DNA of 64,000 nucleotides from Saccostrea cucullata (lineage: Eukaryota), in the NCBI RefSeq assembly GCF_032062105.1, contig NW_026928460.1, positions 124,001 through 188,000 of the forward strand. Direction: 5' to 3'. The position numbers and the translations under genes were made by a program. Numbering within the stretch: the first letter of the stretch is position 1; the number at the start of each line of letters is the position of its first letter. The notes below the pieces were generated by a model. That model searched no databases, was not told the origin of the DNA, and was given only the letters and a program-made list of their open reading frames with translations. Below are positions 2,391 to 38,000 of this stretch, one piece after another.

Positions 2391-2431
2391 GTTGAAAATC
2401 AAAACTCGTCTATTATTTCAAGATACGTATA

Positions 2432-14587: not shown

Positions 14588-17110
14588 GGTAAAAGATCTC
14601 AACCCCCCTTTTCTGTTAGTTTGAATTCCATTTCTAATGCATCAAATTCTTTTGATATAATATATTTAGACATAAAATGACTTAGACCGGTAATAATTTT
14701 GATTTAATGGACCGGGCGAAATGACTGAAATCTGCAGAACACCATAATATACAGATAAAAGTAACACTCTCAAATATTTTTTATGCAAAAATAATTAAAT
14801 TTAAATATTTGAAAAAAATCCTTAAACGAGCAAAATTCAAATCACGACAAGGTCAAAAATATTATATGTATCTCACACAACTTTTCTGGCTGATTTTCTG
14901 ACGGTAAAAGATCTCAACCCCCCTTTTCTGTTAGTTTGAATTCCATTTCTAATGCATCAAATTCTTTTGATATAATATATTTAGGCATAAAATGACTTAT
15001 ACCGGTAATAATTTTGATTTAATGGACCGGGCGAAATGACTGAAATCTGCAGAACACCATAATATACAGATAAAAGTAACACTCTCAAATATTTTTTAGG
15101 CAAAAATAATTAAATTTAAATATTTGAAAAAAATCCTTAAACGAGCAAAATTCAAATCACGACAAGGTCAAAAATATTATATGTATCTCACACAACTTTT
15201 CTGGCTGATTTTCTGACTCGGTAAAAGATCTCAACCCCCCTTTTCTGTTAGTTTGAATTCCATTTCTAATGCATCAAATTCTTTTGATATAATATATTTA
15301 GGCATAAAATGACTTATACCGGTAATAATTTTGATTTAATGGACCGGGCGAAATGACTGAAATCTGCAGAACACCATAATATACAGATAAAAGTAACACT
15401 CTCAAATATTTTTTAGGCAAAAATAATTAAATTTAAATATTTGAAAAAAATCCTTAAACGAGCAAAATTCAAATCACGACAAGGTCAAAATATTATATGT
15501 ATCTCACACAACTTTTCTGGCTGATTTTCTGACTCGGTAAAAGATCTCAACCCCCCTTTTCTGTTAGTTTGAATTCCATTTCTAATGCATCAAATTCTTT
15601 TGATATAATATATTTAGGCATAAAATGACTTATACCGGTAATAATTTTGATTTAATGGACCGGGCGAAATGACTGAAATCTGCAGAACACCATAATATAC
15701 AGATAAAAGTAACACTCTCAAATATTTTTTATGCAAAAATAATTAAATTTAAATATTTGAAAAAAATCCTTAAACGAGCAAAATTCAAATCACGACAAGG
15801 TCAAAAATATTATATGTATCTCACACAACTTTTCTGGCTGATTTTCTGACTCGGTAAAAGATCTCAACCCCCCTTTTCTGTTAGTTTGAATTCCATTTCT
15901 AATGCATCAAATTCTTTTGATATAATATATTTAGACATAAAATGACTTATACCGGTAATAATTTTGATTTAATGGACCGGGCGAAATGACCGAAATCTGC
16001 AGAACACCATAATATACAGATAAAAGTAACACTCTCAAATATTTTTTATGCAAAAATAATTAAATTTAAATATTTGAAAAAAATCCTTAAACGAGCAAAA
16101 TTCAAATCACGACAAGGTCAAAAATATTATATGTATCTCACACAACTTTTCTGGCTGATTTTCTGACTCGGTAAAAGATCTCAACCCCCCTTTTCTGTTA
16201 GTTTGAATTCCATTTCTAATGCATCAAATTCTTTTGATATAATATATTTAGGCATAAAATGACTTATACCGGTAATAATTTTGATTTAATGGACCGGGCG
16301 AAATGACTGAAATCTGCAGAACACCATAATATACAGATAAAAGTAACACTCTCAAATATTTTTTAGGCAAAAATAATTAAATTTAAATATTTGAAAAAAA
16401 TCCTTAAACGAGCAAAATTCAAATCACGACAAGGTCAAAAATATTATATGTATCTCACACAACTTTTCTGGCTGATTTTCTGACTAAGATCTCAACCCCC
16501 CTTTTCTGTTAGTTTGAATTCCATTTCTAATGCATCAAATTCTTTTGATATAATATATTTAGACATAAAATGACTTATACCGGTAATAATTTTGATTTAA
16601 TGGACCGGGCGAAATGACTGAAATCTGCAGAACACCATAATATACAGATAAAAGTAACACTCTCAAATATTTTTTATGCAAAAATAATTAAATTTAAATA
16701 TTTGAAAAAAATCCTTAAACGAGCAAAATTCAAATCACGACAAGGTCAAAAATATTATATGTATCTCACACAACTTTTCTGGCTGATTTTCTGACGGTAA
16801 AAGATCTCAACCCCCCTTTTCTGTTAGTTTGAATTCCATTTCTAATGCATCAAATTCTTTTGATATAATATATTTAGACATAAAATGACTTAGACCGGTA
16901 ATAATTTTGATTTAATGGACCGGGCGAAATGACTGAAATCTGCAGAACACCATAATATACAGATAAAAGTAACACTCTCAAATATTTTTTATGCAAAAAT
17001 AATTAAATTTAAATATTTGAAAAAAATCCTTAAACGAGCAAAATTCAAATCACGACAAGGTCAAAAATATTATATGTATCTCACACAACTTTTCTGGCTG
17101 ATTTTCTGAC
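14588..17110. repeat. 317-bp satellite array 2 (about 8 copies)
   Basis: Same monomer as array 1. Confidence 0.97.
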
Positions 17111-18321
17111 ATGCCAAGAAATCTCGTCCGGTTTACGCACTGTGGAAGTCAATAAAAGTGTAATTGATGCAAATCACCCATATTCCCCAAACGCTAGCAA
17201 GACAATTTACGGCAGCAGATTTCGATTTTGGGGGGGGGGGGGATCATAGGTTTTCAGCTTTCTTAGTTAAAGAAAATAAACTTGATATATTCCACCATTT
17301 ATTTCTATCAGTGATATTTTTACATTAAAATGAAAATATTAACATAGCCAATCAGGTTGCGTCACACGGGTAATTGTTTTGACTGTAAATTTCCATATAG
17401 AATAAAAAGTCTTTAAAAAAAATTGGTAGTTGTTTACTTGAAAAAATATCTAGCAGGATGTTAAACATTACCTGTCACACTAGCTGACACACTCTCACAC
17501 ACAAAACGGTACCTACACGGCATTTCCTGACTTTTTCTATCTGTAAACAGGGCTATCAAATCCACGTGTTTTCAATGTGTCTATAAACATTCCGAGTGTA
17601 CCGCAGGAAGTAGCCTCCTATTCCCGGGAAAAAAATAGTTCCTGTCGAAAACCTTTATCTGTTCAAAAAGTACATAAAATTTAATAGGCACAGGTACCAA
17701 AGTGTAAAAATGGCTTGGAAGAGAATAGAAAAACGTCTCAAAAGAAAGGAAAATCAATTTTAAATGTATGGACTCTCAAACATTTGACAAAAATAATTAA
17801 AGTTCATTTTGATTGGTTAATTACCGGTGTGATACCTCTACCCATAGTACTCCTCTCCCCTCTGGTTTAACCAGGAAATGATGTCAAAATCTGGTACCCC
17901 TTTTTCCCATAATTCGACGCGCGCTACTTCCAAAACTACCATGTTCATCGTACCCGACGTTAATTTATGCTCAGGAAAAAAAAACTATATGGAATTACGT
18001 AAAAAATTGAAAGACAGCTTATTTCTACTGACAAATTAGTTTACTATAATTAATAATTTTGTTTTTCTTTAAAACTTTTTTTCTTACAGTATTTGATAAA
18101 TATGATCTCCCCCCCCTGTTAGTTTGAAAAAAAAAATAAAAAATCAAAAGAAAATAAAAGAAGGGGTACAAAGGCTTCCAAATAATTAGTTTTGTACCAA
18201 AGGCTTCCAAATCAAAAATAAACCCAGTACCTCCCTCAAAATGACATTAATTGCCTTTAAACACAACTTCGGCTTTTATTCAAATTCGCTCTATTACAGA
18301 CTCTACAGGTTTTCTTGGCAT
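17111..18321. mobile_element. Module A, copy 3, with both TIRs (ATGCCAAGAAA...TTTCTTGGCAT)
   Basis: Left junction TTTTCTGAC|ATGCCAAGAAA, right junction TTTCTTGGCAT|GGTAAAAG. No TSD visible. Confidence 0.75.
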
Positions 18322-20406
18322 GGTAAAAGATCTCAACCCCCCTTTTCTGTTAGTTTGAATTCCATTTCTAATGCATCAAATTCTTTTGATATAATATATT
18401 TAGACATAAAATGACTTAGACCGGTAATAATTTTGATTTAATGGACCGGGCGAAATGACTGAAATCTGCAGAACACCATAATATACAGATAAAAGTAACA
18501 CTCTCAAATATTTTTTATGCAAAAATAATTAAATTTAAATATTTGAAAAAAATCCTTAAACGAGCAAAATTCAAATCACGACAAGGTCAAAAATATTATA
18601 TGTATCTCACACAACTTTTCTGGCTGATTTTCTGACTCGGTAAAAGATCTCAACCCCCCTTTTCTGTTAGTTTGAATTCCATTTCTAATGCATCAAATTC
18701 TTTTGATATAATATATTTAGGCATAAAATGACTTATACCGGTAATAATTTTGATTTAATGGACCGGGCGAAATGACTGAAATCTGCAGAACACCATAATA
18801 TACAGATAAAAGTAACACTCTCAAATATTTTTTATGCAAAAATAATTAAATTTAAATATTTGAAAAAAATCCTTAAACGAGCAAAATTCAAATCACGACA
18901 AGGTCAAAAATATTATATGTATCTCACACAACTTTTCTGGCTGATTTTCTGACTCGGTAAAAGATCTCAACCCCCCTTTTCTGTTAGTTTGAATTCCATT
19001 TCTAATGCATCAAATTCTTTTGATATAATATATTTAGGCATAAAATGACTTATACCGGTAATAATTTTGATTTAATGGACCGGGCGAAATGACTGAAATC
19101 TGCAGAACACCATAATATACAGATAAAAGTAACACTCTCAAATATTTTTTAGGCAAAAATAATTAAATTTAAATATTTGAAAAAAATCCTTAAACGAGCA
19201 AAATTCAAATCACGACAAGGTCAAAAATATTATATGTATCTCACACAACTTTTCTGGCTGATTTTCTGACTCGGTAAAAGATCTCAACCCCCCTTTTCTG
19301 TTAGTTTGAATTCCATTTCTAATGCATCAAATTCTTTTGATATAATATATTTAGGCATAAAATGACTTATACCGGTAATAATTTTGATTTAATGGACCGG
19401 GCGAAATGACTGAAATCTGCAGAACACCATAATATACAGATAAAAGTAACACTCTCAAATATTTTTTAGGCAAAAATAATTAAATTTAAATATTTGAAAA
19501 AAATCCTTAAACGAGCAAAATTCAAATCACGACAAGGTCAAAAATATTATATGTATCTCACACAACTTTTCTGGCTGATTTTCTGACTCGGTAAAAGATC
19601 TCAACCCCCCTTTTCTGTTAGTTTGAATTCCATTTCTAATGCATCAAATTCTTTTGATATAATATATTTAGGCATAAAATGACTTATACCGGTAATAATT
19701 TTGATTTAATGGACCGGGCGAAATGACTGAAATCTGCAGAACACCATAATATACAGATAAAAGTAACACTCTCAAATATTTTTTAGGCAAAAATAATTAA
19801 ATTTAAATATTTGAAAAAAATCCTTAAACGAGCAAAATTCAAATCACGACAAGGTCAAAAATATTATATGTATCTCACACAACTTTTCTGGCTGATTTTC
19901 TGACTCGGTAAAAGATCTCAACCCCCCTTTTCTGTTAGTTTGAATTCCATTTCTAATGCATCAAATTCTTTTGATATAATATATTTAGGCATAAAATGAC
20001 TTATACCGGTAATAATTTTGATTTAATGGACCGGGCGAAATGACTGAAATCTGCAGAACACCATAATATACAGATAAAAGTAACACTCTCAAATATTTTT
20101 TAGGCAAAAATAATTAAATTTAAATATTTGAAAAAAATCCTTAAACGAGCAAAATTCAAATCACGACAAGGTCAAAAATATTATATGTATCTCACACAAC
20201 TTTTCTGGCTGATTTTCTGACTCGGTAAAAGATCTCAACCCCCCTTTTCTGTTAGTTTGAATTCCATTTCTAATGCATCAAATTCTTTTGATATAATATA
20301 TTTAGGCATAAAATGACTTATACCGGTAATAATTTTGATTTAATGGACCGGGCGAAATGACTGAAATCTGCAGAACACCATAATATACAGATAAAAGTAA
20401 CACTCT
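18322..20406. repeat. 317-bp satellite array 3 (about 6.6 copies)
   Basis: Same monomer; truncated at CACTCT by the hairpin element. Confidence 0.97.
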
Positions 20407-21085: not shown

Positions 21086-24000
21086 TTACACACTGATCTT
21101 AAGATTAAGATCGCCGTTATCAATGGAGCAAAACAGGTGCGTGGAAGCCCAGTATTTATGAAATTTGTTTACATTAAATCGGTAAAAATCAGCTTGTATT
21201 CTTTGAATTAATTTATTGATGTACATTAAAATCATTCTGTTAGAGTTAATATCTTTCTTTTCAAACTTAATAACACATCGTACTTGCCAAATAATAGAGC
21301 ACATTAATGAAATTAAATATAGACACAAGGAATCAGTTTCCGTACTTAAAAACGTTATTGGAAAATCATGAAAGCGAATATGTGACAAGTTAAATCTTGC
21401 AAACTTATTGTTTGTTATAATATTTAACCAGTTTTTAACAATGGAAATCAAAGGCTTCACAAAAGTACATTCATAAAAAAGATGACTTATAGTTTCGACA
21501 TGAATTTTACAAAGTGCACATTTATTATTTTTGTAAAAACCAATATTATGCATATAATAGGATACAGGTATAATTTCGTGCATAATCCTGAACATTATGT
21601 CTCTAACATTTTTATCTATAAAATCATCATTCAATCTTTGAAAAACTAATTCAAAATTGACACTAGGAAATATATTGATAACACGTGGAGTTGTAACAAT
21701 ATTTTCTAATAAGATTGTATAATAAAATTTCGTTGTCATGTTACCAAAGGAATACAAATAATTATCATTTTCAATCTGTAAAAAATTCCTTAAGTCTTTT
21801 AAACATTCCTGATAAAATTCTGGTATAACCTCTGAATGAGGCCTATTGTTACTAGCAAAACTTGGTTGGTTTGAACATATTTTATTGTTTTGATGTTTAA
21901 ACAAAAGGATTGGACACAAGTTCTTAAAAACTTAGAACGTCCTCTCCTTTAAAACAATTTGTAACACAAAGTACATTGTTCAAAATTAATTTACACAGGA
22001 ACCAAAGGTCAATAAGATTATCTAACATAGACAATGCATATACAGAATTGAATTAATGTAGTATGGACATACTAATCTAAAAGCATTACTCAAAAACGAC
22101 CAGATCTCTTAATATACAATTGCACATTTAAAAATAAACTTTCATTTTCAGAAATACTGATCGAATTATCTCCCCATAATAGAACATGAGTGTCTACAAT
22201 ACGTAAATTTATCATTCTAAAAATAGCATTGAACAAATCGTTTCTTGGGGCAGTGTAGTTCACACAAGAAAAAAAGAAATGATATGCATCTTCTATTTTT
22301 CCGCAAGTACACAGTGGACTGTCAATAATATTACACCTAAATAAGTCTTTATTTAGGACACAATTGTGTCTTAATCTAGTATGAATTACACTCCAGTAAC
22401 GATCACCAAAAGTAAAAAATGACGGGGTGGGTGTTTTCTGAGAGTTTATACATTTTTTGAAGGAACCAATTGTAGTGGATTGTCTTGTTTCAAGAGATAA
22501 AGAATTCCATTCCCTTATTGCCATTGGAACAAACGATGATTTATAAATATTTAATCTACACCTAGGGATACAGTTCAACTTGGTTGAAATTTTCGTAAAT
22601 TTAAACCAACCCAATAAACAGTAAAGAAAGTATATTTTGAAACGTCATTTTCTAGAATATTTTGCAAATGCTTTAACCTTAAAGACTGTAATTTTAAACC
22701 AATATTAACAATTTCCAAACCGCCGTTTTTTCTATAATTATAACATACAGTTCTTTTTAAAGGTTCCGCCGTACTGGGCCATAAAAATCTAAAAATAGCT
22801 TTTTCGAATTGTTTTAAGTAATAATCAGGTAAAAGACAGACAGATCCTACATACCAAATTTTAGAACAGGCTAAAACTTTTACGACAATTGACTTTTCTA
22901 CAAAAGACAAAAACCTCTGTTTCCATAAATTTAAAGTTTTAATAAATTTCGTAAGAATCGGTTGCCAAATATCATCTGAAGTAAGATTATTGCCAAATTT
23001 AACCCCTAAAAGTTTACAATTTTCAACCCATGATATGCCGAAAGGATGGTCTGACCTATTTTTCCATTTCCCTAACCAAATACCTTTTGTCTTTTGTAGA
23101 TTGAGCCTTGCACCCGAGGCGCGTCCATACAGCGAGCACCAATACAGTACTCGCTCTATGGACGCGTCACAGGTACAAATAGCCAAACTATCATCTGCGT
23201 ATAAAGATAATTTACTAGTTTTAGAAGAACCTGGTAGTTTAATGCCTGAAATTTGTTCGTCTTCCCTAATTTTAATGGCGAACGGTTCTAAAACTAAAAC
23301 ATATAATAATGGGCTCAGGCTGCACCCCTGGCGCACCCCTCTATGTAACAAAATAGGTTCCGAAATATGATTATTAACTATAACAGAGGAACATACATCA
23401 GTATATAAAGTTTTAATCCATCGAATGAGAGAAGGCCCAAAATTATAAGCCGAAAGTGCTTGAAATAAAAAGTCATAATTGACGCGATCAAAAGCCTTCT
23501 CTTGATCTAAAGAAATAAAAGCCACCGGGGCCTGTTTTTGTTCACAGTAATCAATAATGTTCCTCATTAAATGTAAATTATCAAAAATGGTGCGCCCTGG
23601 CACGGCGCAGGTCTGATCAGGATGAATAATGTGTTCTAAAACTTTTTTGACTCTATTTGTAATTACTTTAGATATCAATTTATAGTCGTAATTCAACAAT
23701 GAAATAGGTCTGTAATTTTTAACATTTTCAGAATGCTCTTGATCTTTACAAAGTAAAGTAATATAAGATAATTTCTGACTATCTGATAAATGCCCTTCTT
23801 GAAAAGTACAATTCATAACTTCTAATAATGGGTCAATAAGTATATTTATAAACGTAGAGTAAAATTCTTTAGTAAGACCGTCTGCACCGGGAGACTTATT
23901 GTTGTCCATATCGCGGAGCGCTATTAATACTTCTTCTTTTGTTATTTGACCTTCACAGGTGGCCGAAATATCGTCAGGTAATTTTGGCACGCCTTGTAAA

Positions 24001-25213
24001 AAATCATCAGCTAAATCCTGATCAATACCCTCGTCCGTGTATAATTTAGAATAGAAATTTTTAAAAACACCCAAAATATCGCCGGAATTTGTATAAGTAT
24101 TGGAAGACTCTGTAATTTTTGTAATAGTTTTCTGTTTGGCTCTTTTAATTTCCTGTTGAAAAAAGAATTTAGACGGTTTTTCTTCATTATCTAAACTTTC
24201 AGCTTTTGACCTAATTTTCGAGCCGGTATAATTTTGTAGCTGAAACTCTTTAATTTGACTTTTAATTTCCTTTAATCTATCTATAAACTGACCAGGATTT
24301 TTATTTTCAAAATATTGCATTTGATAATAAGACTTTTCTAATTGTCGTAAAACGTTACGCTTAACATTAGATTTTTTCTTACAATAGTGAATAGTAAAAT
24401 TTTTAATTTGTTCTTTTAAATGGTCCCAAAGCTCTAAATACATATCAAATCCCTCTATTAATTCAGTCCAATATTTAGTAAATTGTTTAATGAAAGTTTT
24501 ATCTTGTAATAAAGAATTGTTAAATTTCCAGTAGCCCTGCCCAAAATTAATTGTATCAGAATTTGAAACATTGATTTTTAATAATACAATGTCATGGTCA
24601 CTATGACCAAAAGGAATATTTTGAATACTTGTAATATTTTTACATAAAACCTTAGATACATAGAATCTGTCTAACCTACACGCAACATTTGAAGAAGCCC
24701 AAGTAGTTTTAATTACATTAGGATATAAAAATCTAAAACAATCACTAAGTTGGAAATCGTTAATAATATTTTTTAAATTGTCGCTACCGACGCTACCGTA
24801 TATGGGGTTTCCCCCCGATCTTATCTAATTTTGTATTTAAAACACAATTAAAATCTCCCCCCATTATTAAATGCTTATTACATAATAATAAAGGATATAA
24901 ATCTTCAAAAAACATAATTCTGTCTTTCTCATTATTAGGAGCATAAATGTTAATAATTCTATAATTCATATCATTATAAATAACATCTACATACACTAAC
25001 CTACCATCCATATCTAAATGAAATTTACTAACTACAATATCAGGATTTAAAATAATTATTCCGACTCCTCTACTTCTGTTAGATCCAAAGCTAAAATAAC
25101 ATTTATCTGTATTAAATATAGACTTTATAGCTAAAACGTTATTTATATTATTAAAATGGGTTTCCTGGAGTAATACAATAGAGATCTTTTCCTTTAAACA
25201 TTGAGTAAATAAT
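21086..25213 (-). pseudogene. L1/Tx1 ORF2 (APE endonuclease, reverse transcriptase, C-terminal CCHC domain), disrupted
   Basis: APE motifs LLQETH, NIYAPN, GDFN, RLDRFY, SDHD; RT motifs KSPGADG, RPISLLN, QGCSLSP, YADD; C-terminal CALC...HLFYEC. One frameshift at the C6 run 24811-24816, plus the CR1 insertion. The N-terminus of APE is missing. Confidence 0.9.
21869..22576 (-). mobile_element. 5'-truncated CR1/L2-group LINE 3' fragment inserted in L1 ORF2
   Basis: ORF 22090-22614 encodes a CR1-type C-terminus (SFVPMAIREWNSL, SPLCTCG..EDAYHFFFSC). 10-bp TSD AACTTGGTTG at 21859-21868 and 22577-22586. Excision rejoins ...LRKFQPS|FASNNRPHS... Confidence 0.9.
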
Positions 25214-26531
25214 TCGGACTGCCACAGGTAAATTTTTAGACTGCAAGAACAAAGGAATGATGTCACAGCAATGTTTTAATATATAGTATACAAGCTTGTT
25301 ATCCATTAGCTTTGACTAAACATTTGCATAATCTAAAGCAGAGAGCAAGGAGCGTTTTGTCTACGTTGTTCAAAGGGCCGTAATTTGAATTATCGAACTT
25401 TGTAACAAACTTCCATTATGCAAATTTTACAACATACATTAAATCGCACATGAAAAATTGTATAAATAAGGTGTCCCTGGAAGGGTGGATGGTAGGGGAT
25501 TAAAATAACTGTGCTTGTCCAAATATAAGTAGAATTGAATCTAATTGAATCTACTTCCACTGACAGCTACACTCTGCTGCAAAATAATAATGCATTACAT
25601 TGTAATCCGGGCAAATCATCCAATCAAAGTAAACTTTGTCTTTTTTTTTTTAATCAATTGAATTAAAAATAGGATTGACAATTCACACTATTTTATTTAT
25701 TGTTCTGAAAGAGAGTTTCAAAAACCAGACTGGATGTGATTGTTCATTCACAATTCTTTAATATATGTTCTCATTATTTGTACACTTTGAAAGGAATCAA
25801 AAATTAACAATCAGAAATTACATTGAAGGACATCACAAATAATATCGAAGGACTTTTCGACAACCTAAATATTGCTAATTTTTATTCATCGAATGACCAG
25901 TTTGGGTATGCGAAAACATTCGGAATCTTTAAATGAACACCCATCTTTGACTGGTGAGTGGATTTTTTTTTCTTTTGCGAGGAATTCATATAGCTTGCCT
26001 AAAAAAAATAATTTAACTGCACTCTATATACTGTATATTTTGATAATTTTTTTTCACTGAACGACTATAGTTGGGGTATGCGGAAACATTCAGAAATTTA
26101 AATGAACACTCATCTTTGACTATACTGAGTGGATATTTTTTTCTTTTGCAAGGAATTGATACAGCTTGCCTTAAGAAGAATTTAAAACTACTCTCCAGAA
26201 ACCACAATGTAATGTCAGTTAAAAAATGAAGTCCAAATTAATTTTACATCATTTTATTGAAAATAATAAGGTTGAATCCAACATTTCTTTTTTTTACGAT
26301 TCAGCGTTCTTTTTCAAAACAAAAATTGAAGAAAAGATTGGATGGAATAATTTAATATACATTTTAGGGTATGGCAGATCTCCGTATGAATCTAGATAAA
26401 CATGTCAGCAATTATGTCGAGAGATTACTATGAAGTGCCGTATTGCTCTTCAGGGCTTAAAGAGCTGAGTTCTCGTCAAACAACAGTTACTTTTGCGGTA
26501 TTTTATATCGAAACTGATTTCAGCATTATGC

Positions 26532-26682: not shown

Positions 26683-27713
26683 AGCATTATGCAAAACATC
26701 CATGCACTTCAATACCAGGATACTGCATGCATTGTACTGCTTGACGTACAGTCTGTTTAAAACATACATGTACATGGTCAATATTTAATGCAACTACAAT
26801 TTGTGAGAATCATGTTAAAAATGTAAACTATTTCCAATTTTGCCTAGTCTTCTTCCATAAAATAGACGTGGTGGAATAGATTTCTTAATAATTACTCCAT
26901 AAACTTTGATAAGATTGTTCTCTTACTATATACATTTAGAATTTAGAAATGATCATATCGATACTTTATAATAAAGTTACATTTTGTTTCTTTGTTGCAC
27001 TTGCCCGGGTAGTCAAAATAGTGTAAATTCAAACGTTTGACTTATGAGTTCACATTTAGAGTCTCAATCAAGCAAAGCACCAATATGCTTTGTATAACAA
27101 TCAAACGCAATATTCAATCCTGCCTGCTTAGCATTTCTTGTGTAGTGAGATAAACTCACCAACCAAATGAAAAGCTCTTGACATGGCAAAACTAGTTTAC
27201 TGAGGAGTGACTCTCTAAAGTCTTATATAGTATACAAGCTTGTTATCCATGAGTTTTGCCTAAACATTTGCATAATCTAAAGCAGAGAGCATAGATCGGT
27301 TTGTCTACGTTGATTAAAGGGCCGTAATTTGAAATATCGAATTTTGTAACAAACTTCCATTATGCAAATTTTACAACATACATTAAATCGCACAAGAAAA
27401 AATGTATAAATAAGGTCTTTGTAACAAACTTCCATTATGCAAATTTTACAACATACATTAAATCGCACAAGGCAAAATGTATAAATAGGGTGTCCTTGGA
27501 AGGGTGGATGGTGGGGGAGTAAAATAACTGTGCTTGTCCAAATACAAGTAGAATTGAATCTAATTGAATCTACTTCCACTCACAGCTACACTCTGCTGCA
27601 AAATAATGCATTACATTGTAATGCCGGGCAAATCATTCAATGAAAGTAAAGTTGGTCAATTTTTTTTTAATCAATTGAATTAAAGATAGGATTGACAATT
27701 CACACTATTTTAT

Positions 27714-29200: not shown

Positions 29201-29759
29201 AAATTAGAATCGATCATATCGATACTTTATAATAAAGTTAAGTTGTGTTTCTTTGTTGCACTTGTCCGGGTAGTAAAAACAGTGTAAAATCAAACGATTA
29301 ACTTATGAGTTAAAGTTTAGAGACTCAATCAAACAATGCACCGATATGCTTTGCATAACAATCAAACTCGCTTTTCAGTCCTGCATGCTTAGCATTTCTT
29401 GTGTTGTGAGATAAACTCTGCAACCAAAAGCAAGCGCTTGACATGGCTAACCTTGATTACTGATGAGTGCCTCCATAAAGTCTTATATAGTATACAAGCC
29501 TGTTATCCGTTAGCTTTGCCTAAATATTTGCATATTCTAAAGCAGAGAGCAAAGAGCGTTTTGTTTACGTTGTTCAAAGGGCCATAATTTGAATTACCGA
29601 ACTTTGTAACAAACTTCCATTATGCAAATTTTACAACATACATTAAATCGCACAAGAAAAATTGTATAAATAGGGTGTCCCTGGAAGGGTGGATGGTGGG
29701 GGAGTAAAATAACTGTGCTTGTCCAAATACATGTAGAATTGAATTCAGCTGCAACTTAC

Positions 29760-30063
29760 ATAAATTTCTTTTCGGTTACATTATTAATTAATGACTATTA
29801 AAAAAAAAAAAAAAAAAAAATGATTGGTGTTCCTGGGAGTTGAACCTGGTTCCTTTGGCGTGCAGGGCAGCGGGTATAATGATTCGGCTATCAAGTCAGT
29901 ATGTATTACTTTGGTAATTTCTATTTATCTTACGTATGTGCTTTAATAATTTAAATATCTTTTGGGGTCTATTTTGCGGCACGCGGTGAACCGGTCCAAG
30001 GGTATTTAAACTCGTGTTTTGTGTTCTTTTGTCATTCGACAAGTTAGCCACGACGTATCAGTT
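29760..30063 (+). repeat. Split direct repeat A1
   Basis: Identical by eye to 34448-34748 apart from poly(A) length. Confidence 0.95.
29825..29897 (-). ncRNA. tRNA-derived Pol III promoter cassette (degenerate, not a functional tRNA); second copy at 34510-34582
   Basis: Minus strand, 73 nt: box A-like TAGCCGAAT, box B GGTTCAACTCC, ending ACCA and followed by a long T-run. The acceptor stem does not pair. Confidence 0.55.
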
Positions 30064-30073
30064 AGAAACACAG

Positions 30074-30895
30074 ATGAATCTGTCCGATTCAGATAGTGAG
30101 CCATCTCCACGTGGTAGCCCGGGGAAAAGTGTTCCTCATGAGCCAAAAAGACGTCCGTCTAACAACAATGAGGCTAGCCGCAACCGTTCGCAAACTTTGA
30201 ATGAAGACCTTACTAACGCAGAGGCATTCCAATTGTTTTCCCGCAAGTTAGACGTAGCTTTAGCAGAGAACAAAAAGCTGCTTTTGAAGGAGTTAGAAGC
30301 AAAAAATTCAACTTGTGTATCCAGAGAAAGTTCGGTTGATTTTAAGTTGGATCATCACAAAGAAAGGTACAACTTCTTAACAGATTTACAAAGTGACTTT
30401 GAAAGTATTGATAAATTTATTGACTTTGGTGATAGTTTGAATGCTAAAGAGATAATCAAAAAAGCTGTTCTTCGTATTAACGACCAGAAAAAAGTTATAA
30501 GAATTGCAGATAAGTACGGCTGGGATGTGGCTAAAGAGTACAAAGATGACCCAATCACGGAGAGTACAGAGGAAAGTCAACGACTCCGGCAAGCAGAAGC
30601 CAGGGCTAAAAGGAAAAGGTTTGACAAAAGAAATTATAATAATCCTTTTCGTACAGATAGCAGCAAATTTTTCCAGCAAAGATTTACTCCTTACACCAGG
30701 CAGTTTAGTTCATACGGGAACTTCGGAGGATCACAACCAAGCCCATACAGAATACAACCAGACCAATGCCTGTATTGCAATGGGTTCGGGCACTGGAGTG
30801 TCAACTGTCCCCTCAAGAAAAAGAGCCAACCTTTCGCGATCGGCAAGCCAACTTCAACACAAACCGGACCCTCCACAGATAACCAAAGAACCTAA
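30074..30895 (+). CDS. gag: DIRS Gag-like ORF1 with CCHC zinc knuckle
   Basis: KVIRIADKYGWDVAKEY motif typical of DIRS gag; CLYCNGFGHWSVNC knuckle. First ATG at 30074 (the ORF track opens at 30014). Confidence 0.85.
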   Translation: MNLSDSDSEPSPRGSPGKSVPHEPKRRPSNNNEASRNRSQTLNEDLTNAEAFQLFSRKLDVALAENKKLLLKELEAKNSTCVSRESSVDFKLDHHKERYNFLTDLQSDFESIDKFIDFGDSLNAKEIIKKAVLRINDQKKVIRIADKYGWDVAKEYKDDPITESTEESQRLRQAEARAKRKRFDKRNYNNPFRTDSSKFFQQRFTPYTRQFSSYGNFGGSQPSPYRIQPDQCLYCNGFGHWSVNCPLKKKSQPFAIGKPTSTQTGPSTDNQRT

Positions 30896-32837
30896 ACTGG
30901 TAAAAGATATTTTGTCTTGTGAAAAAGAAAATGTTAATTTACAAACGGTTAAAGGGAGATTAGTAAAAAACATTTCTTTTTGGAAAGAACAATTGCATGC
31001 TGAACAATACATAGTTGACACTATTCAGTATGGTTATAGTATTCCTTTTGATTGTTTTCCAGAGACTATTATTTTGCATAACAATAAGTCTTCTCTTGAT
31101 CATGAGGAATTTGTAGACAACGAAATAAGAAGTTTGTTAGCCAATAAAGTCATTGTAAGGTGTAGTACTGTTCCTTCTATAGTTAATCCTTTGTCAGTTT
31201 CTATAAATTCTCATGGCAAGAAAAGACTTATTTTGGATCTTAGACATGTTAACAAATGCGTACGAAAAAATAAATTTAAGTTAGAGGGTGTTAGCAGCGC
31301 TATCAAACTTTGCAAGAAAAATGACTTTATGTTCAAGTTTGATCTTAAGAGCGGTTATCATCATTTGGACATAAATCCATTGCATTTTCAATTTTTGAGT
31401 TTTTGTTGGAAAAGTACCTATTATTCTTTCACGGTACTTCCTTTTGGTTTGAGCTCTGCTCCTTTTATTTTTACACAGCTGCTCAAGCCTTTGTTGAAAT
31501 ATTGGAGAGCAAAAGGTCATAAAATTGTTGTTTATTTAGATGATGGATTTGGGTTAGCAAACGATCTAGAATCATGTAAAGTTATGTCTTCAGCTATTAA
31601 AGCAGACTTAATTTCAGCAGGTTTTTTGGTTAACGAGGATAAGAGTATTTGGACTCCCTGTCAATCAATGGAATGGTTGGGGTTTTCTTGGGATACTGTA
31701 CATGGTATGCTTTTCATACCTCAATCTAAAATTGATAAATTATTTGGCAAAATCAGGGAAGTTATTTCATCCGAGAAAATTACTCCACGTGTTCTAGCTA
31801 GCATAGCTGGAAACATAATTTCTTTCCAGCAATCCTTAGGAAATGTATGTTCTATTATGACGAGAGTTATGCATATGGTTATTGCCAATTCAGTTTCTTG
31901 GGATCATTGTATTGTTCTTTCAGATGAAATTGTGACTGAACTTAATTTCTGGTTGCGCAATTTACAATGTTTGCCATCTAAATGTTTTCTTAAAGGCAGT
32001 TTCATTCCTCAAAGGATCGTTTTTACGGATGCAAGCAAGTATGCAGCGGCTGGTTACATTGTGGAACTCGCAGATAGTGTAGTGCATAAAATGTGGACTT
32101 CTGTGGAAGCTCTAAAGAGTTCTACCTGGAGGGAGATGAAAGCAGTAGAGACAACTTTAATATCTTCTACAGATAAGATTAGCAACAGAACTGTAAAACT
32201 TTATACTGACAATCAAAATGTAGTTAAGATAGTTAATTCTGGTAGCATGAAAAAAGAGCTCCATGATATTGCACTTAATATTTATGCTTTTTGTATTCAG
32301 AATCAAGTAACATTAGAAGTTGAGTGGATTCCTAGAGAGGAAAATAGTGTAGCAGATTGTTATAGCAAAGTTTATGATTTTGATGACTGGTCTGTTTCTG
32401 ATATTATATTTCAATTTTTCAGTAAAAAATGGGGGCCCTATGATGTAGATCTTTTTGCAGATTGTAACAATTTCAAGGTAAAAAAGTTTTTTAGTAAATT
32501 CTGGACGCCAGGGAGTTCTGGGGTCGATGCATTTGGTTTCAATTGGAAAAAATTTAACTCTTGGATCGTTCCTCCAGTTTCTCTTATTCCAGATGTTATT
32601 AATCATTTAGGTTTGTGTAAAGCGCATGGTACACTTGTTGTGCCAAAATGGACATCCTCACTTTTTTGGTCCATGTTGGTAAATTCAGATGGAAAATTCA
32701 AAAATTTTGTGATTGACTATATTGAATATGACAAACCAAGAAATTTTTTCATTGCAGGGTCTTACAAAGAAAGTGTTTTCGCTGGAGTAAAATTTTTCTC
32801 CAATGTAATAGTACTCCTTGTTAATTTTGATATTTAG
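30504..32837 (+). CDS. pol: DIRS ORF2: reverse transcriptase, RNase H, C-terminal DNA adenine methyltransferase-like domain
   Basis: KRLILDLR, DLKSGYHH, LPFGLSSAP, YLDD; RNase H FTDAS...YTDNQ; MT-like VDLFAD...GVDAF...WIVPP. Overlaps gag by 392 bp; the true start is uncertain. Confidence 0.93.
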   Translation: MQISTAGMWLKSTKMTQSRRVQRKVNDSGKQKPGLKGKGLTKEIIIILFVQIAANFSSKDLLLTPGSLVHTGTSEDHNQAHTEYNQTNACIAMGSGTGVSTVPSRKRANLSRSASQLQHKPDPPQITKEPKLVKDILSCEKENVNLQTVKGRLVKNISFWKEQLHAEQYIVDTIQYGYSIPFDCFPETIILHNNKSSLDHEEFVDNEIRSLLANKVIVRCSTVPSIVNPLSVSINSHGKKRLILDLRHVNKCVRKNKFKLEGVSSAIKLCKKNDFMFKFDLKSGYHHLDINPLHFQFLSFCWKSTYYSFTVLPFGLSSAPFIFTQLLKPLLKYWRAKGHKIVVYLDDGFGLANDLESCKVMSSAIKADLISAGFLVNEDKSIWTPCQSMEWLGFSWDTVHGMLFIPQSKIDKLFGKIREVISSEKITPRVLASIAGNIISFQQSLGNVCSIMTRVMHMVIANSVSWDHCIVLSDEIVTELNFWLRNLQCLPSKCFLKGSFIPQRIVFTDASKYAAAGYIVELADSVVHKMWTSVEALKSSTWREMKAVETTLISSTDKISNRTVKLYTDNQNVVKIVNSGSMKKELHDIALNIYAFCIQNQVTLEVEWIPREENSVADCYSKVYDFDDWSVSDIIFQFFSKKWGPYDVDLFADCNNFKVKKFFSKFWTPGSSGVDAFGFNWKKFNSWIVPPVSLIPDVINHLGLCKAHGTLVVPKWTSSLFWSMLVNSDGKFKNFVIDYIEYDKPRNFFIAGSYKESVFAGVKFFSNVIVLLVNFDI

Positions 32838-32877
32838 ACTTTTTCAGGTGCATTTGTGTTATGACATTTAGATGGAA

Positions 32878-33180
32878 TTCTGACAGGGAGTCAGAACTGA
32901 GACTTTGTATTGTAAGGCTGAGTATTTGATTTGTGTTATGACAGGCTGAGAGCCTGATATTTGTAATGAATGGCTGAGAGCCCATGTGTATGATTGGCTG
33001 AGAGCCTTTGTGTATGATTGGCTGAGAGCCGGATATTTGTATTTGATTGGCTGAGAGCCTTATTTGTGTATTACTGGCTGAGAGTCAGAATTAGTTGTTT
33101 AGCAGGCTGAGAGCCTGATGAATGATTTCAATGGCTTGAGAACCAAAATTAAATTTAACTAGTTAAGGCTTAGTTAAGCC
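32878..33180 (+). repeat. Array of short palindromic GGCTGAGAGCC hairpin repeats between RT and YR
   Basis: Exact copies at 32944, 32972, 32996, 33020, 33049 and 33105; variants at 32916, 33076 and 33133; period 24-29 bp. Confidence 0.9.
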
Positions 33181-33280
33181 AGGATTTAAAAGTGTCTGCA
33201 ATTGCTTACTATTTAAATTCAACTGTTTCTTAAAATATTAAATCTTTATATGTTAACGTTTTGTTTGTTTATGATTTCAG

Positions 33281-34291
33281 TTCTTCAACCATTCACATTG
33301 GGCAGAATTGAGAACTCATGAAGAGGGGGACATTGCTAAGCTGGCTGGGAATATACCGGACTTAATTGAGGCTTCAAAATCAGAGTCCACTTTACGTAAA
33401 TACAAGACATATTTTTCTAAATTTGATCATTGGTGTTCATTTCACAAATTATCTTCTTTACCAGCATCACCTGCAACAGTGTCTCTCTTCATTTCTCATC
33501 TTGTTCAGAGTAAATCAACATCTTCAGTGTTAACCTCTCATTTTTACGCTGTGCAATGGTATCATGAGAAAAATTTGTTTCCAAATCCGTGTTCTGACAA
33601 ACTTGTGAAAATGACTTTTGAGGGAGCGTTGCGCACTCTTACAAAATCTTCAGTGAACAAGAAACAACCGATTACATCTAATATTATTTCCAAAGTCTTT
33701 AATTTAAGAAGTAACTTGTCAGATTTATCTGATTTGCGTACTAGATTACTCTTTGTTCTTGGATATGCAGGATTTTTCAGGGCCAGAGAGCTGTGCAACA
33801 TCAAGAGATCGGATATTACTTTTTGTGATACTCACGTGGAAATTGAACTTAGAAGCTCTAAGACAGACATATACAGAAGGGGTAACATTGTGCACATTGC
33901 AAAACTCGACTCTGATTTGTGTCCCGTTCAATGTCTTATTGATTATCTTAAATTAGCTGGTGTTCAAAACGATTCTAATGAATTTATATTTAGGTCATTA
34001 AGATATTTCAAAAAATGTAATTCTTATAGGCTTGCAAAAAGTAACAAAGCTATATCTTATACTTGTGTCAGAGAACTTATTTTGAAGGCATTGAAAGATG
34101 TTGGAGAGGACGCTTCAAAGTTTGGTGTGCACTCACTTAGATCCGGAGGTGCTTCAGCCGCAGCCAATCTAGATATTCCCGATAGACTCTTTAAGGCTCA
34201 TGGACGGTGGAAAAGTGAAACGGCAAAGGACGGTTATATTAAGGATAGTACAGAAAAGGTTCTATTTGTGTCAAAAAATTTGGGATTGTAA
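33281..34291 (+). CDS. DIRS tyrosine recombinase (probably spliced at its 5' end)
   Basis: Catalytic motifs GFFR, SKTD, HSLRSGGAS, HGRWKS..GY. The frame is open from 33275 with no N-terminal ATG; acceptor TTTGTTTATGATTTCAG ends at 33280. Confidence 0.92.
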   Translation, partial: FFNHSHWAELRTHEEGDIAKLAGNIPDLIEASKSESTLRKYKTYFSKFDHWCSFHKLSSLPASPATVSLFISHLVQSKSTSSVLTSHFYAVQWYHEKNLFPNPCSDKLVKMTFEGALRTLTKSSVNKKQPITSNIISKVFNLRSNLSDLSDLRTRLLFVLGYAGFFRARELCNIKRSDITFCDTHVEIELRSSKTDIYRRGNIVHIAKLDSDLCPVQCLIDYLKLAGVQNDSNEFIFRSLRYFKKCNSYRLAKSNKAISYTCVRELILKALKDVGEDASKFGVHSLRSGGASAAANLDIPDRLFKAHGRWKSETAKDGYIKDSTEKVLFVSKNLGL

Positions 34292-34337
34292 TTAAATAAT
34301 TTTTTCTTTTCATTTTCCCTCAGACGTTTTTTATTCG

Positions 34338-34748
34338 AATTTTGGCTAACATTGTCGCCTCCTCTATATTTGTGTTTGAGTTTTTGTTTATGTAAAGAGA
34401 ATATGAAATACTTTATGTTCGTCTGAGCGAAGCGAAAGAGAACATAAATAAATTTCTTTTCGGTTACATTATTAATTAATGACTATTAAAAAAAAAAAAA
34501 AAAAATGATTGGTGTTCCTGGGAGTTGAACCTGGTTCCTTTGGCGTGCAGGGCAGCGGGTATAATGATTCGGCTATCAAGTCAGTATGTATTACTTTGGT
34601 AATTTCTATTTATCTTACGTATGTGCTTTAATAATTTAAATATCTTTTGGGGTCTATTTTGCGGCACGCGGTGAACCGGTCCAAGGGTATTTAAACTCGT
34701 GTTTTGTGTTCTTTTGTCATTCGACAAGTTAGCCACGACGTATCAGTT
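34338..34748 (+). repeat. Internal B1-A2 junction of the split direct repeats
   Basis: B1 (34338-34447) equals 34958-35067; A2 (34448-34748) equals 29760-30063. Confidence 0.95.
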
Positions 34749-34957
34749 TTCCAAACTCTTTTACTTTTATTTAATGAAATAGAATTCTTTTGCAGATTGA
34801 TGCTTAGTTTCTTTGAAGTAGATTCCATTCCTTGTGTGGAGATGCATGTTGCAGTTTGCCTGGACCAATCCTGTGTTACCTTGGTGTTTTATCCTCCTTC
34901 CCGGGCTGTATGGACGCACTTAAGGACGCGTTTACATTTGTACAAATCAGTTTATTA

Positions 34958-35067
34958 AATTTTGGCTAACATTGTCGCCTCCTCTATATTTGTGTTTGAG
35001 TTTTTGTTTATGTAAAGAGAATATGAAATACTTTATGTTCGTCTGAGCGAAGCGAAAGAGAACATAA
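34958..35067 (+). repeat. Split direct repeat B2 (right terminus)
   Basis: Ends in the hairpin TTATGTTC...GAGCGAAGCGA...GAACATAA. Confidence 0.95.
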
Positions 35068-38000
35068 TTCCACCGACAGCTACACTCTGCTGCAATACAA
35101 TGCATTGCATTGTAATGCCGGGCAAATCATCCAATCAAAGTAAACTTTGTCAATTTTTTTTTAAATTGATTGAATTTAAAATAGTTTCAAACTCAGACTG
35201 GATGTGATTGTTCATTCACAATTCTTTAACATTTGTTCTCATTATTTGTACTCTTTGATAGGAATCAAAAATTAACAATCAGAAATTACATTGAAGGACA
35301 TCAGAAATAATATCGAAGGACTTTTCGACAACCTAAATACAGTGTATTGCTAATTCATAACCTTTAAATGAACACTCATCTTTGTCTAATAAGTGGATTT
35401 TTTTTTCTTTTGCGAGGAATTAATATAGCTTGTCTAAAAAAAAAAAAGAATCCAACTGCGCTCTATATACTGCATATATTGATAATTTTTATTCACTGAA
35501 CGACTATAGTTGGGGTATGCGGAAATATTCATAACCTTTAAATGAACACTCATCTTTGTCTAATAAGTGGATTTTTTTTTTTGCAAAAAATTAATGCAAA
35601 GAATTTATATAGCTTTCCTTGCAAAGAATTTAACTACTATTCAGAAACCACAATGTAATGTCATTTTAAAAATTAAGTCCATTAGTTTTACATAATTTTA
35701 TTGAAAATAAGGTTGAATCTAATATTTCTTTTTATGATTCGGCGTTTTTTATCAAAACAAAAATTGAAGAAAAGATTGGATGGATTTTTTTATTTACATT
35801 TTGGGGTATGGCCGTCCTCTGTCTAAATCTAGATAAACATGTCAGTAATTATGTCGAGAGATTACTTTGAAGTACCGTATTGCTGTTCAGAGCTTAAAGA
35901 GCTGAATTTTCGTCAAACAACAGTTACTTTTGCGGAATTTAACATCGAAAACTGATTGGGGCATTATGTAGCTCTGCAGAACTGTAGCGTTATGAACTTA
36001 TATACTAGTCTTTGACCTTAACAGTAGCGTTATGGTTTTATATATTAGTCTGTGACCATGATATGGTCAAAGACTAATATGTAAAACCATAAAGCTACAG
36101 TTCTGCAACTAAGCATTATGCATTAAGTCTGCTTACAATAAAGATTTATTTGCACTGCAATGCATTGCATTGCATTGCACTGCTTGATGCTTGATGTACA
36201 GTCTATTTAAAACACACATGGTCAATATTGAATTCAACTACGGTTTGTGAAAATTGTGTTTAAAATGTGAACTATTTCCAATTTAGCCTAGTCTTCTTCC
36301 TTAAAACAGACGTGGTGGAATAGGTTTGTTAGTAATTATAACAACTCGATCAACTTTGATAAGATTGTTCTCTTACTATATACATTTAGAATTTAAAATC
36401 GATCATATCGATACTCTATAATAAAGTTACATTGTGTTTCTTTGTTGCACTTGTCCGGGTAATAAAAACAGTGTAAAATCAAACGATTATCTTATGAGTT
36501 AAGGTTTAGAGACTCAATCAAACAAAGCACCGATATGCTTTGTATTACAATCATACACGCTTTTCAGTCCTGCATGCTAAGCAATTTTTGTGTTATGAGT
36601 TAAAGTCTCCAACTGAAAGCAAGCGCTTGACATGGCTAAACTTGATTACTGATGAGTGCCTCTCTAAAGTCTTATATAGTATACAAGCCTGTTATCCCTT
36701 AGCTTTGCCTAAAAATTTGCATAATCTAAAGCAGAGAGCAAAGAGCGTTTTGTTTACGTTGTTCAAAGGGCCATAATTTGAATTATCGAAGTTTGTAACA
36801 AACTTCCATTATGCAAATTTTACAACATACATTAAATCACACAAGAAAAATTGTATAAATAGGGTTTCCTTGGGAGGGTGGATGGTGGGGGAGTAAAATA
36901 AATGTGTTTCTCCAAATACAAGTAGAATTGAATCCAGCTGCACCTTACTTCCACTGAAAGCTACACTCTGCTGCAGTACAATTCATTGCATTGCAATGCC
37001 GGGCAAATCATCCAATCAAAGTTAACTTAGTCATTTTTTTTCAATTAATTGAATTAAAAATAGCGTTAAAATTCACACTATTTTATTTATTGTTATGATT
37101 TAGAGTTTCAAACTCAGACTGCATGTGATTTTTCATTCACAATTCTTTAATATTTGTTCTCATTATTTGTACCCTCTTTGATAGGAATCAAAAATTAACA
37201 ATCAGAAATTACATCGAAAGACATCAGAAATCATATCGAAGGACTTTTCGACAACTTATATACCCAACAAAAAAAGAAACGCATATTGTTTTACTCATCA
37301 AAGAAATTTTGAAAAAGTATTTGGAACAACTATTTTTTTTATCATTGGATACCTGTGGCCTATTTGAAATACAACATGGGCTTTTTAAACCCCAGTTGTT
37401 GAATTATTTCCCTTGATTAATCATGTTTATGAAAATAGTGTTTTACATGATTTCTTGTAAATCGAGAGTATTTTCAATGAAATTTTGGATTTTGAGAAAC
37501 AATAAACACTCCTATTGAACCCATATTTATGCTTTGATTGCAATGTTGATGCTGCAATGCTACGCCTAAACAAAGATGAAAGCAACAAAGCTCTACACCC
37601 ATTCTCAATATAAGGGCACAAATGCCTCTCTGATTTTTTAAAAAAATGAAGTTCAAGATAACAATTTTTCTATCAATTACCTTTGAAAGAAAGTATCTGA
37701 AGATTTTGTTTCCAGATTTTTTTTCATCAAGTTTTAATACATGGAATAATGACAAGACGGTAAAGTAGAGGGTGATTTTATTCAGAAATGTAGCTTGAAA
37801 TGTACGTTACTCTTTCTTCAATGTCCAAAAAGATATGTCAAAAAAATGTAGTCATTAAAATCACAATTGGAATATCTCATCTTAACACCAGCACATCCTA
37901 CCAACTCTGTCAGCATCATTTTCTCGGCATACGAACGTGCGTTTGATTTTTCCTTTCAAAAAACAAAGGTTACTTTTTGATCCAGATGTATAAAAAAAAT

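Follow-up and report, generated by a model that had tools for sequence, protein, structure and literature searches.

A recurrent, family-specific hairpin array between pol and the tyrosine recombinase of PAT-like DIRS elements

Introduction

Retroviral packaging signals, such as HIV-1 Psi with its GGAG loop and MoMuLV Psi with its UCUG sites, are clusters of short hairpins with multiple G-containing sites. They work with Gag proteins that carry CCHC zinc knuckles and are restricted to unspliced RNA (passages of PMC7599994). Guanosines that are exposed are bound by the knuckles. In HIV-1 the signal comprises over two dozen nucleocapsid (NC) sites and is destroyed by splicing; MoMuLV NC, a protein with a single knuckle, failed to bind isolated hairpins (same passages, PMC7599994). 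Other retroelement signals act on RNA that retains an intron. The RSV stability element (RSE) and the musD/IAP elements are located downstream of a stop codon, in or beside the last intron of the retroelement (passages of PMC5784592). The HIV RRE and the MPMV CTE likewise license intron-retaining RNA, the CTE from a comparable location (abstract of PMC4829213). RRE, CTE, RSE and musD are all single larger folds of conserved sequence. The RRE is similarly placed within HIV.

DIRS elements are widespread. To our knowledge, almost no cis-acting signals are known in them besides the terminal repeats and the internal complementary region (ICR). Internal tandem repeats are present in the algal TOC1 and kangaroo elements. 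The echinoderm-form Pat1-like group is defined by split direct repeats, a methyltransferase, a Gag knuckle and a same-strand tyrosine recombinase (YR) (passages of PMC4157794). Open questions about DIRS elements concern RNA selection, YR expression, cDNA priming and the role of the methyltransferase (passages of PMC7192593; bioRxiv 10.64898/2026.05.21.726589). A compact, modular array that keeps a fixed position and differs in sequence between families makes these questions directly testable.

Here we describe such an array in an oyster element that lies within a 64-kb stretch of DNA (the window). The array is genuine and under selection, and it recurs among PAT-like DIRS elements. It most plausibly works like a retroviral cis-acting RNA signal, and it belongs to no such family. 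With Psi it shares clustered short hairpins, multiple G-containing sites and a Gag with a CCHC knuckle, and it too is probably confined to unspliced RNA. Psi is found in the 5' leader beside the major donor, whereas the oyster array (32878-33180) lies about 3 kb into the RNA, next to the acceptor at the 3' end of a predicted intron. Psi is a branched fold of distinct hairpins, whereas the oyster array is a homogenised tandem of a single unit. It is like the RSE and musD/IAP elements in its place downstream of a stop and in or beside a predicted last intron. Unlike the single larger folds, the arrays reported here consist of 3-16 repeats of an 11-16 nt hairpin, are family-specific and have no Rfam match in the elements scanned.

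Literature and Sequences

The literature was covered as titles, abstract openings and text passages of PMC2632668 (with supplements), PMC9210276, PMC4157794, PMC7192593, PMC3266345, PMC6681497, PMC8547959, PMC7599994, PMC5784592, PMC10309623 and bioRxiv 10.64898/2026.05.21.726589. No description of a hairpin array in DIRS elements was found in this material; the founding papers of Goodwin and Poulter, Repbase, the kangaroo paper and most supplements lie beyond this scope and could mention repeats. In the parts covered, which differed in topic from paper to paper, the DIRS/YR papers (PMC9210276, PMC4157794, PMC3266345, PMC6681497) gave no mention of tandem repeats, hairpins, introns or splicing in connection with the spacer between pol and YR.

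Relatives were collected by using an alignment of the reverse transcriptase (RT) in one scan of prokaryotic genome contigs, which gave 11 loci (L001-L011). These loci evidently stem from animals whose DNA was assembled together with that of symbionts into the symbiont genome records. Seven of them are complete, having both pol and YR (L001, L002, L003, L004, L006, L007 and L009). L005, L008 and L010, which have no spacer, and L011, which is cut before YR and has a decayed pol, were left out. The RT tree holds the window element and eight fetched loci only. Unit cores were picked by hand around the top repeated 9-mers. For L002 and L004 the mismatch limit was raised by one, which changed the units from 5 to 7 and from 6 to 9, respectively, and L004 7677-7899 (the decayed pol end) was excluded from the unit counts.

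The occurrence of animal DIRS DNA in 11 prokaryotic genome records, in some cases within very long contigs (L003, L007, L010), reflects host contamination or chimeric assembly. L002:1-9117 is a fold-back contig that holds the same element twice in inverted orientation, probably an assembly artefact.

The Element That Carries the Array

The components of the element are as follows.

29760..35067, + strand: whole element, intact, echinoderm-form Pat1-like (PAT-like DIRS), A1-gag-pol-spacer-YR-B1-A2-B2, 5.3 kb
29760..30063, + strand: split direct repeat A1, the same as 34448-34748 apart from poly-A length
30074..30895, + strand: gag, 273 aa; its one CCHC zinc knuckle lies at 30767-30808 (CLYCNGFGHWSVNC, CX2CX4HX4C); candidate reader of the array
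30501..32837, + strand: pol frame, +1 relative to gag; leader overlapping the gag end, RT, RNase H (RH) and Dam-like methyltransferase (MT)
32838..33280, + strand: non-coding pol-YR spacer, the 3' end of a predicted intron
33281..34291, + strand: predicted YR exon; first Met is residue 111; catalytic R-K-H-R-H-Y residues present
34338..34447, + strand: split direct repeat B1, identical to 34958-35067
34448..34748, + strand: split direct repeat A2
34958..35067, + strand: split direct repeat B2, 3' end of the element

The element is inserted into a host repeat without target duplication, and two empty-site homologs (27530 and 36905) join both flanks directly. Pfam profiles match pol at RVT_1 (7.5e-18), RVT_3 (7.4e-08) and Dam (4.4e-05). 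The Dam match covers pol residues 626-725 with a score of 23.6, which is below the curated cut-off of 28.1, and the region is alignable across homologs. The zf-CCHC match of Gag is weak (E 0.028, below cut-off). The Gag protein belongs to a cluster of four near-identical proteins, three of them named Saccostrea cucullata; this marks the family as young, with multiple copies in an oyster. Mussels, scallops, oysters, abalone and a brittle star supply the best named relatives of the YR.

The earlier note had called the locus an intact DIRS element. This is accurate, and the element can be placed more precisely as PAT-like rather than DIRS1-like. It has split direct repeats in the order A1-[ORFs]-B1-A2-B2, with the internal repeats downstream of YR, a methyltransferase domain after RT/RH (Ngaro elements have none), a Gag zinc finger, and YR on the + strand in the same orientation as pol. 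SpPat1-type Pat1-like elements share the Gag zinc finger, the RT/RH/MT order, the same-strand YR and the A1...B1-A2-B2 arrangement (passages of PMC4157794). Inverted terminal repeats and an internal complementary region of the DIRS1-like kind were looked for; the ends are split direct repeats, and no inverted repeat among the 25 longest listed connects them.

The motif ACATAA is found at the left end (29756-29765), the B1/A2 junction (34442-34453) and the right end (35062-35073) and is a candidate recombination core. The empty sites (27530-27610 and 36905-36985) read CTAC/TTAC and then TTCCAC, without ACATAA. Some pol homologs (P0193, P0208, P0212, P0227, P0244) have a short Cys-rich tail after the methyltransferase, which the window pol lacks. 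Gag and pol form one open frame in L002, L005 and L008, and a +1 overlap in the window element.

Units of the Array

The spacer holds the following hairpin features.

32878..32896, + strand: 5' bracketing hairpin TTCTGAC-AGGGA-GTCAGAA, 7 bp, loop AGGGA, -7.4 kcal/mol
32897..32922, + strand: two half units with 5' arm and loop only, without 3' arm (CTGAG at 32897, GGCTGAG at 32916)
32942..33146, + strand: array of 8 hairpin units, core GGCT-GAG-AGCC, with T/G-rich linkers of 13-18 nt
32944, 32972, 32996, 33020, 33049, 33076, 33105 and 33134, + strand: unit starts (the last unit is degenerate)
33167..33180, + strand: 3' bracketing hairpin GGCTT-AGTT-AAGCC, its end 100 nt upstream of the YR acceptor

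Successive units are spaced 28, 24, 24, 29, 27, 29 and 29 nt apart. About nine palindromes every 24-29 bp had been reported in the earlier note; the spacing stands, and the count becomes eight units plus two half units. GGCTGAGAGCC occurs exactly six times in the 64-kb window (32944, 32972, 32996, 33020, 33049 and 33105), and GGCTGAGAGTC at 33076 is its one-mismatch form, which yields a G-U pair. The eighth unit at 33134 has three mismatches to GGCTGAGAGCC. The six exact copies and the one-mismatch copy are confined to the array, with a chance mean of 0.19 over the 64 kb and at least seven copies in 0 of 100 shuffles. The stem extensions described before (CAG..CTG at 32942 and 33103, CTG..CAG at 33074) are all present, and 33018 contributes two further U-G pairs. 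Both bracketing hairpins exist as well; the one at 33167 had been drawn as GGCTTA-GT-TAAGCC and is given here a 5-bp stem and a 4-nt loop, since a 2-nt loop is unable to close.

The palindromes had been described as better conserved than the spacers between them, and the counts agree. With indels allowed and every consecutive period included, cores differ at 4 of 88 positions and linkers show 40 edits in 113 (Fisher p 4e-8), and the loop GAG is kept in all eight units. The linkers are similar to one another (consensus TTTGTGTATGATT), which indicates that the array arose through tandem duplication.

The motif ATTTGTG is seen in the linkers at 32853, 32929 and 33063 and was not seen as a common feature of relatives. 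Lying beside hairpins, it resembles an Sm-type site.

Arrays of Related Elements

The complete relatives are 38-42% identical to the window element in RT. The earlier note had proposed a comparison of the RT-YR spacers of related families, and this comparison bears it out: arrays recur at the same position in four of the seven, a weak one is present in a fifth and two have none. Their units are listed below.

L003: CAGCCT-GGA-GGGCTG, 6 units
L007: CCAGC-CGGAGT-GCTGG, 16 units, 23-nt period
L004: CCC-TCRGT-GGG, 9 units
L002: CCAC-YYG-GTGG, 7 units
L001 (weak): GCTC-ACCGA-GAGC, 3 units, equal to the shuffle maximum

L006 has no array in its pol-YR spacer. L009 has only two copies of a non-palindromic motif, which has ACAGGCTGAG in common with the window element, and the hairpin is absent. 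The top repeated 9-mer has more copies than the maximum of 60 shuffles in L003 (6 vs 3), L007 (14 vs 5), L004 (6 vs 4) and L002 (4 vs 3). The densest repeated 9-mer per 300 nt falls in the spacer of the window element (8 copies), L002 (4), L003 (5), L004 (5) and L007 (11), and elsewhere reaches at most 2-3. The last intact unit ends 90-117 nt upstream of the acceptor in each array. The four relatives with clear arrays group in a single clade (support 0.97), where they are 47-56% identical to one another, so the independent lineages number only about two or three. L003, L004 and L007 carry frameshifts and are probably dead copies.

Within families, loop conservation is 1.00 in the window element, 0.94 in L003, 0.93 in L001, 0.90 in L004 and 0.85 in L007, and only 0.67 in L002. 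In L002 and L004 the linker identity has fallen to 0.50-0.58 while the units persist. Between families, shared k-mers do not exceed shuffles (9-mers: 7 vs 13.4). In a hand-picked alignment the window and L003 units agree at 10 of 15 positions, one G-C pair being exchanged for C-G, and a hand-picked alignment of 13 units gave a few common G positions. We claim no universal sequence motif because an unbiased comparison of k-mers gave values no higher than those of shuffles. One L001 unit (2216-2228) is the exact reverse complement of one L004 unit (8434-8446).

Some L002 units resemble a CTCF motif and a CAC-N3-GTG site.

Pairing and Compensation

In six families (window, L001, L002, L003, L004 and L007) the hand-picked unit core reads as an inverted repeat whose stem has 3-5 bp. 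Over 49 units and 301 cells of these families, Watson-Crick changes on both sides of a pair were counted 13 times where 5.5 are expected (p about 0.001, an optimistic value because units within a family are related). For core pairs only, the pooled count is 5 against 0.9 expected. Covariation, proposed as a check in the earlier note, is seen when families are pooled and is not significant in the window element alone, where 3 both-side pairs are matched by 45 of 500 shuffles and the covariation score by 149 of 500; L004 alone is also not significant. The single G-U wobble reported in the stem at 33074 is present and does not generalise. A sense-strand G-U bias looked promising by eye and failed on count: at consensus Watson-Crick pairs there are 7 G-U and 10 A-C pairs pooled, and 6 and 4 without L007.

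A neutral minisatellite, in which slippage acts in the only unconstrained region and template-switch correction of quasi-palindromes keeps the arms complementary, is a very doubtful explanation of these data. It accounts for the related linkers, which indicate an origin by duplication, and the spacer is the main place that would tolerate repeats. The window also has palindromic minisatellites elsewhere, built on the 21-nt AGAGATATCTCT (39328 and 40037). L007, in which many pairs are broken, looks like an ordinary minisatellite of 23-nt period, and two of the seven relatives are without an array. Against this, the cores are about eight times better kept than the linkers and the units of L002 and L004 have outlived their linkers. 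Template switching would not protect the unpaired GAG loop, and the other non-coding parts of the element (the A and B repeats and the A2-B2 gap) are without such repeats. The earlier note had expected a neutral minisatellite to change equally in stems and spacers and to lack covariation. The changes are uneven and the pooled compensation exceeds expectation, and the idea of a selected multivalent stem-loop array, also found outside the window element, holds.

Double-stranded DNA sites are likewise a very unlikely reading. The units would then act as an internal promoter or enhancer of YR through CCAAT boxes. Alternatively, being interrupted palindromes, they would bind a protein as a dimer, for which YR and the Dam-like domain are examples. 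ATTGG (reverse CCAAT) is present in three of the eight window units (32993, 33017, 33046), and the units are regularly spaced interrupted palindromes. The reverse-complement relation of the L001 and L004 units is expected of a site that is free of orientation, and L009 keeps its motif in common with the window element where the hairpin is absent. However, ATTGG and CCAAT together number only 0-3 per relative spacer, on which count a CCAAT promoter was rejected. The arms change in compensation and the loops are fixed in most families, which is the reverse of what a dimer site predicts. A promoter in the spacer would yield a YR RNA with 13 upstream spacer ATGs and no in-frame Met before residue 111. 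In addition, the units of a family all share one orientation.

Short palindromes at regular spacing are shared by the oyster array with palindromic minisatellites, CRISPR-like arrays and miRNA clusters. Unlike CRISPR-like arrays, the oyster array has linkers of 13-18 nt that are mutually homologous and not unique spacers, and no cas-like gene is present in the element; this reading was rejected. A scan for bacterial promoters and terminators flagged three units as resembling terminators, a result of no relevance to a eukaryote. The suggestion that the array is a source of processed small RNAs was not supported: the hairpins are only 11-19 nt, too short for a small-RNA precursor or a ribozyme, and an Rfam scan of 29700-35200 with E up to 5 matched nothing in the array, nor were there matches at gathering score in L001, L002, L006, L009 and L011. 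Drosha and Dicer substrates are far longer than these hairpins.

Folding and Strand

The interval 32870-33190 folds better than dinucleotide shuffles on both strands (plus z -3.0 to -4.5, minus z -4.7 to -6.3). The entire spacer reaches a z of only -1.4; the signal is local. In the equilibrium model of the window sense RNA with a span of 150, the mean hairpin probability is 0.22 and pairing between units is preferred; over the six families the equilibrium values for sense RNA are 0.16-0.32. When the span is limited to 30 nt, local hairpins dominate the window sense RNA (mean pair probability 0.96). As DNA, the window array has a hairpin probability of 0.76 on either strand. Antisense DNA is the highest state in most families (37 C: L003 0.87, window 0.76, L002 0.51, L004 0.45). 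L007 folds poorly as DNA (0.14-0.20), and most copies of its unit fold no better than their own shuffles.

These values bear on the possibility, in our judgement rather unlikely, that the hairpins serve the minus-strand cDNA while it is single-stranded. In the one non-coding stretch available they would form a platform for loading or priming, used in making the second strand or by YR or the Dam-like domain. We give it some weight because DIRS-1 accumulates single-stranded, mostly linear antisense cDNA, whose route to double strand is not shown (passages of PMC7192593). As DNA, the minus strand of the window array has a beads-on-a-string centroid with all seven intact units (z -5.8, 0 of 100 shuffles). 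The high hairpin probability of antisense DNA is not a general gain, as 12 control hairpins elsewhere in the element show none (0.29 vs 0.28). Triloops occur in three of the six families, and the count of G-U against A-C pairs does not favour the sense strand. On the other hand, sense DNA of the window folds as well as antisense, so the DNA gain reflects energy rules and not strand, and L007 is poor as DNA. The U-G closing pair in four of the six L003 units becomes a mismatch on the minus strand. The loops of the minus strand have no common motif (CTC, TCC, ACTCCG, ACYGA, CRR), and the single-stranded DNA data come from Dictyostelium DIRS-1, not PAT-like elements.

A bolder form of this idea, to which we give a similarly small chance, is that in marine invertebrates the pol-YR spacer of PAT-like elements holds a hairpin code that evolves fast, differs between families and works on the single-stranded minus-strand cDNA. 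The code would co-evolve with a reader encoded by the element and would serve as a second-strand start or a loading site for YR or the Dam-like domain. If true, it would be an element like a single-stranded DNA origin in a eukaryotic retrotransposon, and the unexplained methyltransferase or priming step would gain a testable substrate.

A Probable Spliced Recombinase mRNA

The YR frame opens 6 nt upstream of a pyrimidine tract that ends TTTCAG at 33280, and its first Met, residue 111, falls beyond the N-terminal SAM-like domain. The candidate splice signals are given below.

30897..30905, + strand: candidate donor site CTG|GTAAAA with the cut at 30899|30900, immediately 3' of the gag stop
33251..33280, + strand: candidate branch point TTAAC (33253-33257), pyrimidine tract and acceptor TTTCAG|TTC (cut 33280|33281, phase 0)

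TTAAC is a candidate branch point by its likeness to the consensus. A matching acceptor precedes the YR start in all seven complete relatives. With this shared acceptor and a YR frame that lacks an early Met, pol and the array probably sit in an intron of a spliced YR mRNA. The candidate donor is in phase 0 in the pol-frame leader and in frame with the YR acceptor. From these sequence features, an env-like splice from 30899|30900 to 33280|33281 is probable, which would fuse a shifted-frame leader that overlaps the gag knuckle to the recombinase. The acceptor is well supported and the donor less so.

NCBI and UniRef gene models of relatives, which are themselves predictions, point the same way: 21 of 32 fuse upstream coding sequence to the YR start and omit the spacer. 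The upstream part comes from RT, RH or MT in 14 (by BLAST), from a short RT in one, from the shifted-frame leader in five and from gag in one; the five leader joins and the short RT join were identified by eye. The other 11 models comprise one ambiguous short leader, eight with an internal start, partial or unspliced, and two that are chimeric or deleted. The models disagree on the donor. A leader-YR model of 481 residues recurs at many loci of Mytilus californianus. BLAST found no similarity between the window leader and the leaders of the gene models, and their homology rests on recognition by eye of the shifted knuckle frame. In the titles, abstract openings and text passages of the DIRS literature covered, no description of a spliced, env-like mRNA for the recombinase was found.

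The window leader contains the hydrophobic stretch IIIILFV, and similar hydrophobic leaders are seen in gene models of mussel, scallop and brittle star. At 32838-32853, right after the pol stop, TTTTTCAG|GTGCAT combines an acceptor and a donor (AG|GT) and might act as an additional acceptor or in recursive splicing.

The position of the array between the pol stop and the acceptor would place it in every intron-retaining RNA, whichever donor is used. It could thus be an element read by host factors without Gag, either for export or stability of the intron-retaining transcript (CTE-, RTE-, MTE- or RSV-stability-like) or as a splice attenuator, and we consider this unlikely. The array starts just after the pol stop, with about 2.2 kb of 3' sequence remaining, and ends just before the acceptor, and its linkers are U/G-rich with seven TGTA in the window element. 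The RSE, also downstream of a stop codon, blocks nonsense-mediated decay (passages of PMC5784592), and retrotransposons require an export route for unspliced RNA (passages of PMC10309623). However, a host reader should impose a common sequence, and 9-mers shared between families do not exceed shuffles. No Rfam match was obtained in the elements scanned. Decoy donors, one form of the regulation of YR splicing suggested in the earlier note, are not enriched: 34 donor-like sites were counted over nine spacers against 38.7 expected. Only L003 trends upwards (9 vs 5.6, p 0.09), and the hint that it gives of a U1 decoy or micro-exon array (CAG...CTG|GTATGT) is not general.

A Proposed Family-Specific Binding Platform

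The explanation that we prefer, with a confidence somewhat short of an even chance, is that the array is a family-specific multivalent binding platform on unspliced RNA that is read by Gag. Its architecture is kept while its sequence turns over, which points to a reader encoded by the element, and the lack of k-mer sharing above shuffles fits such a reader better than a host reader. We place our confidence in Gag because the spacer would be restricted to unspliced RNA, as the sole non-coding stretch unique to that transcript and absent from the YR mRNA, and zinc knuckles bind exposed guanosines. Retroviruses confine packaging to their genomes by the same logic. The probable location inside the YR intron is an extra argument for the packaging idea of the earlier note.

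The element would make two RNAs: one of full length, from which Gag, Pol and cDNA are produced, and one that serves the recombinase and would have lost pol and the array through the YR splice. Several copies of a protein encoded by the element, most likely Gag through its CCHC knuckle, may bind the G-containing loops cooperatively, and this binding would select the family's own unspliced RNA for particle assembly. The array may also keep the full-length RNA unspliced and stable, since it ends about 100 nt before the acceptor.

Five of the six families have, on the sense strand, G-rich loops or GGAG, GGUG or GAG adjacent to the loop, which counts for Gag as the reader. Against it count L002, in which GUG sits in the stem, and L001, whose loop is not G-rich. 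We also count against it the lack of a G-U strand bias, the preference of the span-150 sense RNA for pairing between units, the non-significant covariation in the window element and in L004 taken singly, the failure of MoMuLV NC to bind isolated hairpins, the relatives without an array (L006 and L009), the single clade, the weak folding of L007 and the reverse-complement unit of L001 and L004. If the reader is encoded by the element, the arrays would be natural orthogonal tag pairs of RNA or single-stranded DNA with protein.

Other Features of the Window

Two 21-nt minisatellites on the palindrome AGAGATATCTCT extend over 39328-39668 and 40037-40454. Long arrays of a 317-bp satellite, broken up by recurrent modules of poly-A and 29 bp, occupy 6442-20406. 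A non-LTR retrotransposon with endonuclease-like and RT frames, frameshifted, is located at 21086-25275 (- strand). Host genes are represented by a single-exon B-box/NHL (TRIM-like) gene at 2396-4123 (+ strand) and by a large BRCT-containing exon at 49921-51735 (- strand), which presumably belongs to the CTD phosphatase FCP1.
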